Positions 17,723 through 20,637 of a stretch of DNA of 64,000 bases are shown here, piece by piece. The stretch is from the NCBI RefSeq assembly GCF_024502345.1, contig NZ_JALDNN010000001.1. One strand, 5' to 3'. Within the stretch, counting starts at the first letter, position 1. Each line of letters opens with the position of its first letter. The notes under the pieces were generated by a model that searched no databases, was not told the DNA's origin, and saw only the letters and a list, made by a program, of their open reading frames with translations. Position numbers and translations under genes: made by a program. This stretch comes from Escherichia coli. GTDB taxonomy: Bacteria > Pseudomonadota > Gammaproteobacteria > Enterobacterales > Enterobacteriaceae.

Positions 17723-20637
<2,915 letters not shown>

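Follow-up and report, generated by a model that had tools for sequence, protein, structure and literature searches.

The gene ynbD lies on the minus strand of the Escherichia coli DNA analysed here, a stretch of 64 kb (hereafter the window) in which the individual genes are 97.5–100% identical to those of E. coli, and it is interrupted by an amber codon. The part of the window from 17600 to 19200 matched 4,822 of the 5,426 complete E. coli genomes searched with megablast; the matched region is annotated as ynbD, [quoted passage not shown], between ynbC and azoR. The window gene has the position expected of an orthologue: it lies downstream of ynbC and is convergent with azoR. In near-identical genomes in RefSeq, ynbD is 1,317 nt long (438 aa), which corresponds to 19039..17723 of the window with a GTG start codon. 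The ynbD gene of E. coli K-12 MG1655 (b1411), to which the window gene is 97.5% identical at the DNA level, is annotated as encoding 430 aa from the TTG at 19015, eight codons further in. Pfam analysis of an intact YnbD homologue, whose gene differs from that of the window by 1 nt, assigned residues 82–206 to PAP2/PAP2_3 and residues 314–437 to DSPc; judged on this homologue, the gene has the N-terminal PAP2 and C-terminal DSPc architecture of the family. Our literature search found no functional study of ynbD. The features of the locus are compiled in Table 1.

Table 1. Positions of the features in and around ynbD in the window
Feature	Position	Strand or change	Remarks
ynbD pseudogene	17723..19039	−	Full footprint of the 438-aa PAP2 and dual-specificity phosphatase protein; 1 of 1,317 nt differs from ynbD of FDAARGOS_943
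Premature amber codon TAG, replacing TGG	18860..18862	−	Trp60 of the 438-aa model, Trp52 in K-12 numbering
Mutated base	18861	Plus-strand C>T (coding-strand G>A)	Sole mismatch of the alignments with L019 (14,250 bp) and L020 (7,811 bp)
CTAGG, remnant of the ancestral Dcm site CCAGG	18860..18864	+	The changed base is the inner C, the target of Dcm methylation
Part of ynbD still translatable, 59 codons	18863..19039	−	Contains the first hydrophobic segment; ends upstream of the detected PAP2 match
Downstream open reading frame, 341 codons	17723..18748	−	Starts at internal Met98; CTGGCAACGGTA precedes the ATG, with no recognisable Shine-Dalgarno sequence
ynbC remnant	19029..20637	−	First 149 nt of the gene absent
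IS903B, 1,057 bp	20638..21694	+	18-bp terminal inverted repeats GGCTTTGTTGAATAAATC; no 9-bp target-site duplication
ynbA remnant	21695..22038	−	First 346 nt of the gene, with a 1-bp deletion

A preliminary description of this DNA had placed an in-frame TAG within ynbD and had read the 83-codon open reading frame before it (19111..18860) and the 341-aa one after it (18748..17723) as a single interrupted PAP2/phosphatase gene of approximately 430 aa. Minus-strand translation of 19111..17723 confirmed both the coordinates and the frame: the frame is continuous apart from one internal stop, at which the plus strand reads CTA, and the two start positions are 363 nt apart. The single-gene reading was upheld by the orthologues described below, which start upstream of the TAG. 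The 83-codon frame is ynbD only in part, since 59 of its codons belong to this gene and the first 24 overlap the 3′ end of ynbC. Likewise, a start at the ATG at 19111 was not borne out, and both the RefSeq annotation and the orthologue alignment point to the GTG at 19039.

The orthologue set consisted of 17 proteins from Klebsiella, Salmonella, Citrobacter, Buttiauxella, Pectobacterium, Yersinia, Pantoea, Vibrio, and others, all of which are full length (425–449 aa). Every one of them starts upstream of the position of the TAG, and most of the N-termini align with GTG 19039; the natural downstream start that had been named as the case against an interrupted gene was therefore not found. The invariant positions among the first 60 residues include W15, P21, F23, F24, Y27, N31, W51, E52, I55, P56, F57, and P59, and position 60 is occupied by Trp in 11 and by Leu in 7 of the 18 aligned sequences. 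Because the N-terminus is conserved among the orthologues and carries Trp or Leu at this position, a sense codon is expected at 18862..18860, which is the answer that the proposed alignment check was meant to provide. The codon is TGG in all three complete genomes that were aligned. The frame with the conserved N-terminus is thus stopped at codon 60 in the window, and the window ynbD is a pseudogene of the YnbD family and not a working member of it.

Exact-product look-ups with the N-terminal fragments of 59 and 83 aa found neither on record. Re-initiation at Met98 was considered as a route to a working protein and rejected: a Shine-Dalgarno sequence is missing, the N-terminal helices and the start of PAP2 would be lost, and the upstream operon is gone. 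The stop is not expected to have a polar effect on other genes, since no gene of the operon follows ynbD and azoR is convergent.

The ynbABCD operon is broken by an insertion sequence as well. IS903B stands in place of the 3′ end of ynbA, the whole of ynbB, and the 5′ end of ynbC (K-12 coordinates 1477967-1479286), and the presence of its terminal repeats without a target-site duplication is the signature of an IS-associated deletion. The 528-aa product of the ynbC remnant was not on record in an exact-product look-up. Relatives of the window were sought as contigs that encode its exact HrpA protein, and two were found, designated L019 (NCBI GCA_050022275.1) and L020 (Logan ERR14375843); the YdbK allele, present in 1,344 blocks by exact-product look-up, was too common for picking close relatives. 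The contig of L019, the closest relative, reaches 76 nt into IS903B and ends there, so the junction that it has in common with the window is that on the ynbC side only, yet its ynbD retains TGG. In L020, ynbB and ynbC are intact. These two relatives suggest the order of a clean ancestor, the IS903B deletion, and then the ynbD stop. We infer that the ynbABCD operon would already have been non-functional when the stop arose.

Deletions extend beyond the operon. In the surroundings of approximately 30 kb, six deletions relative to K-12 are found in the region from tynA to ynbC, and they have taken away ydbA, ydbD, half of tynA, and the greater part of the paa cluster. The chain of deletions spans 22137-26963 of the window. 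The 5′ half of tynA is fused to a fragment of paaZ at a junction with a 5-nt overlap (25940-25944), and the missing parts are the 5′ part of paaZ through the 5′ part of paaE (25193-25195), paaF through the 5′ part of paaX (24463/24464), ynbG together with ydbA (23412-23425), and ydbD (22137-22244). The tynA and paa deletions imply that phenylacetate catabolism and the amine oxidase have been lost. Because of the insertion sequence and the deletions, a Shigella origin was considered; the element is IS903B, and the genes have the identity of 97.5–100% to E. coli given above.

Elsewhere, the window differs from K-12 in several ways. The gapC gene (9212-10213) is an intact open reading frame of 333 codons, with one extra A relative to the frameshifted pseudogene of K-12. 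The Rac prophage is absent at 40853-41964, where uspF directly precedes an intact ttcA. At 60845-62433, two intact open reading frames are present where K-12 has only the short scraps ymjD and ymjC; they encode an alpha/beta-hydrolase-like or lactonase-like protein of 310 aa and an NAD-binding epimerase-like or dehydrogenase-like protein of 216 aa, and K-12 ymjD and ymjC look like remnants of these two.

Comparison with the close relatives singles out one base. L019 aligns with 20713..6464 of the window with position 18861 as the one mismatch, and its ynbD encodes 438 aa; the alignment with L020 has the same single mismatch. TGG>TAG is also the only difference between the window ynbD and the annotated ynbD of FDAARGOS_943. 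As the lone mismatch against both relatives, 18861 marks the TAG as private to the window's genome. Of the complete E. coli genomes in which this stretch is present, 4,599 in number, none contained an exact copy of a 63-mer with the TAG at its centre, and a 41-mer around it had no exact match in species-representative genomes or JGI metagenomes. If it is not an error, a private TAG of this kind must be very recent.

The base lies in a distinctive context. In L019, L020, and FDAARGOS_943, the plus strand has the ancestral CCAGG, and the change to CTAGG at 18861 is a C-to-T transition at the inner C of this CCWGG site. The 14,250 bp compared with L019 contain 33 CCWGG sites, so that 66 positions (0.46%) are Dcm target cytosines, and the sole difference falls on one of them. 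Deamination at three of the four Dcm sites in ynbD would give TGG>TAG. The classic amber hotspot of lacI lies at the second C of CCAGG, with an approximately tenfold over-representation (Coulondre et al. 1978, as related in PMC12606429), and the T:G mismatch that arises in CTWGG/CCWGG by deamination of 5-methylcytosine is a substrate of Vsr repair (PMC2715241). Neither dcm nor vsr is located in the 64-kb window. The hotspot argument would be one from position, and a single SNP is a sample of one.

The same context also accommodates a rival explanation, which we consider unlikely: the TAG may be a consensus or base-calling error at a Dcm-methylated CCWGG, for example in a nanopore-only assembly, with TGG as the true codon. 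Modified DNA leads to strand-specific substitution errors in nanopore reads (PMC11610603), the lone difference from two near-identical public assemblies sits exactly on a Dcm target cytosine, and neither the 41-mer nor the N-terminal peptide look-ups gave a second copy of this lineage's TAG. However, the other 32 CCWGG sites are unchanged over the 14,250 bp shared with L019, and there are zero mismatches over a separate 4,900 bp aligned with a further contig, L012. With the other sites clean, a systematic methylation artefact is excluded, and any error would be sporadic. In addition, current base-callers attain approximately 99% read accuracy within CCWGG (PMC11610603), and the remaining errors would normally be corrected in the consensus. 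The occurrence of the same TAG in an independent assembly of another lineage further argues that the mutation is biologically plausible.

This other assembly, SRR8240975 (L009), carries an identical W60* and is 98.5% identical to the window, with differences at 91 of 5,915 positions. The two are identical from 17717 to 18889, and the nearest difference, at 18890, is 29 nt from the TAG. Unless recombination connects them, W60* has thus recurred in independent lineages, and its presence in L009 would fit a recurrent hotspot. The alternative is that the TAG is real but was imported from a W60* E. coli lineage of the L009 type by a short homologous-recombination tract, and the identity of L009 and the window across 17717-18889 means that a tract confined to this stretch would leave no trace. 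Such a tract would have to be shorter than 1.2 kb and to have both ends within the identical stretch, although L009 diverges so close to the TAG, and a hotspot mutation accounts for the recurrence without any transfer; hence we regard import as very improbable.

Lesions in ynbD are diverse among other genomes. The 341-aa downstream product had an exact match in 115 collection blocks, and the six places examined among them gave six lesions, namely W60*, Q47* (CAG>TAG), W66* (TGG>TAG), and three 1-bp frameshifts; this sample consists of lesions by construction, and it speaks to their diversity and not to their frequency. The lesions other than W60* are independent ones in L006, L007, L008, L010, and L011 (Q47*, W66*, and three 1-bp indels, at nt 68, 71, and 257), and each of them leaves the same 341-aa downstream open reading frame with the same C-terminal allele. 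Relative to K-12, the ratio of nonsynonymous to synonymous differences is 12/19 in ynbD and 9/9 in ynbC versus 3/58 in hrpA. In a protein search, truncated YnbD products likewise made up several large clusters, and some of these may be fragments from contig ends. Taken together, ynbD appears to be weakly constrained.

The second amber-interrupted gene that had been reported within 32 kb is real as well. In abgB, TAT is replaced by TAG at 50619-50621 (Y300*, codon 300 of 481) through an A:T>C:G transversion outside any Dcm site, whereas the ynbD change is a G:C>A:T transition. None of 4,178 complete E. coli genomes has the abgB amber, and 8 public metagenome or Logan contigs do; one of these contigs (ERR14375843) matches the window over 4,900 bp without a difference, and two are 99.45% identical to it. 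Its occurrence in the latter indicates that it is older than the ynbD change. The abgB amber is, to judge from these contigs, an older, circulating pseudogene allele unrelated to that of ynbD.

The significance of the pair at which the preliminary description had hinted was not supported. The codon content of 48 genes in the window leads to an expectation of TAG in 37–47% of nonsense substitutions, and two TAG codons out of two thus have a probability of approximately 0.14–0.22; moreover, the two lesions differ in mutation type and age. An over-representation of TAG was rejected on this expected fraction. Apart from these two, the approximately 17,500 aligned codons contain a single new stop, in rimL (451-453), where the last sense codon CAA is changed to TAA, and the protein is one residue shorter than that of K-12. 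The genes paaX, ycjG, and pgrR normally end in TAG, which amounts to 3 of the 55 gene stops in the window, and the window contains no tRNA genes.

It has to be asked whether the TAG codons might be decoded, such that an amber suppressor, programmed read-through, or leaky UAG termination in a rare lineage would keep ynbD and abgB conditionally expressed and functional, and not dead. The proximity of two amber-interrupted genes, 32 kb apart, is what speaks for this idea, but that coincidence is compatible with chance, the lesions differ in time and type, TAG serves as an ordinary terminator in the window, and no tRNA gene is encoded there. Furthermore, with the ynb operon wrecked by IS903B, nothing would be left worth preserving. 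Neither TAG avoidance, nor a suppressor tRNA, nor an excess of in-frame TAG was found within the window. Nothing therefore points to an enrichment, suppression, or recoding of amber codons, and the survival of either gene by decoding, whether through read-through or through tolerance in a rare lineage, would be most surprising.

On balance, the ynbD TAG is probably real, a loss-of-function point mutation of very recent date, which occurred at a Dcm hotspot in an already broken operon and was kept by drift. In this scenario, the inner cytosine of the plus-strand CCAGG would have been methylated by Dcm, provided that the strain methylates these sites, and the resulting 5-methylcytosine may have become thymine by spontaneous deamination and escaped very-short-patch repair. 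The change of this C to T turned the Trp codon TGG of ynbD into the amber codon TAG. Translation is now confined to 59 of 438 codons, short of the matches to the PAP2 and phosphatase domains. As ynbABCD was presumably non-functional by then, the stop would have been costless and could have been retained through drift. The earlier reading of an interrupted gene was therefore right, and what it overlooked is the IS903B deletion in the operon and the Dcm context of the mutated base. Our verdict is that the ynbD TAG represents the ordinary pseudogenisation, of an already-understood kind, of a non-essential membrane phosphatase gene, with a consensus error at a methylation site as the main rival.

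In the annotation of this genome, ynbD should carry a pseudogene flag, and the entire ynbABCD operon should be treated as lost. Before calling a pseudogene, curators should check the reads whenever a long-read assembly shows an isolated SNP at a CCWGG cytosine. The nearby ambers in ynbD and abgB signal nothing unusual in stop-codon usage, and beyond annotation the ynbD TAG matters little, other than as a clean natural case of the textbook C>T amber hotspot at Dcm sites.

The comparison with lacI is the closest one. As in the Dcm amber hotspots of that gene, a G:C>A:T change at the second C of CCAGG has produced TAG and has left CTAGG, the Vsr substrate context. In lacI, however, the methylated C is on the coding strand and CAG becomes TAG, whereas in ynbD it is on the opposite strand and TGG becomes TAG. 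Furthermore, the lacI mutations are selected laboratory mutants, whereas the ynbD change is found in a natural genome, where methylation and deamination would be the likely antecedents. With respect to E. coli ynbD (b1411), the last gene of ynbABCD, the window gene shares the locus between ynbC and azoR and, in its intact homologue, the combination of PAP2 and DSPc; unlike b1411, it is broken at codon 60, and the upstream genes of its operon are deleted or truncated through IS903B. In this respect, it resembles the accessory-gene pseudogenes of the same region in K-12 (gapC, ycjV, and ydbA), which are non-essential, carry a point lesion or an IS, vary among strains, and have no apparent consequence. 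Compared with ordinary E. coli pseudogenes, the window ynbD shows no substantive difference, and what sets its allele apart is its absence from the 4,599 complete genomes.
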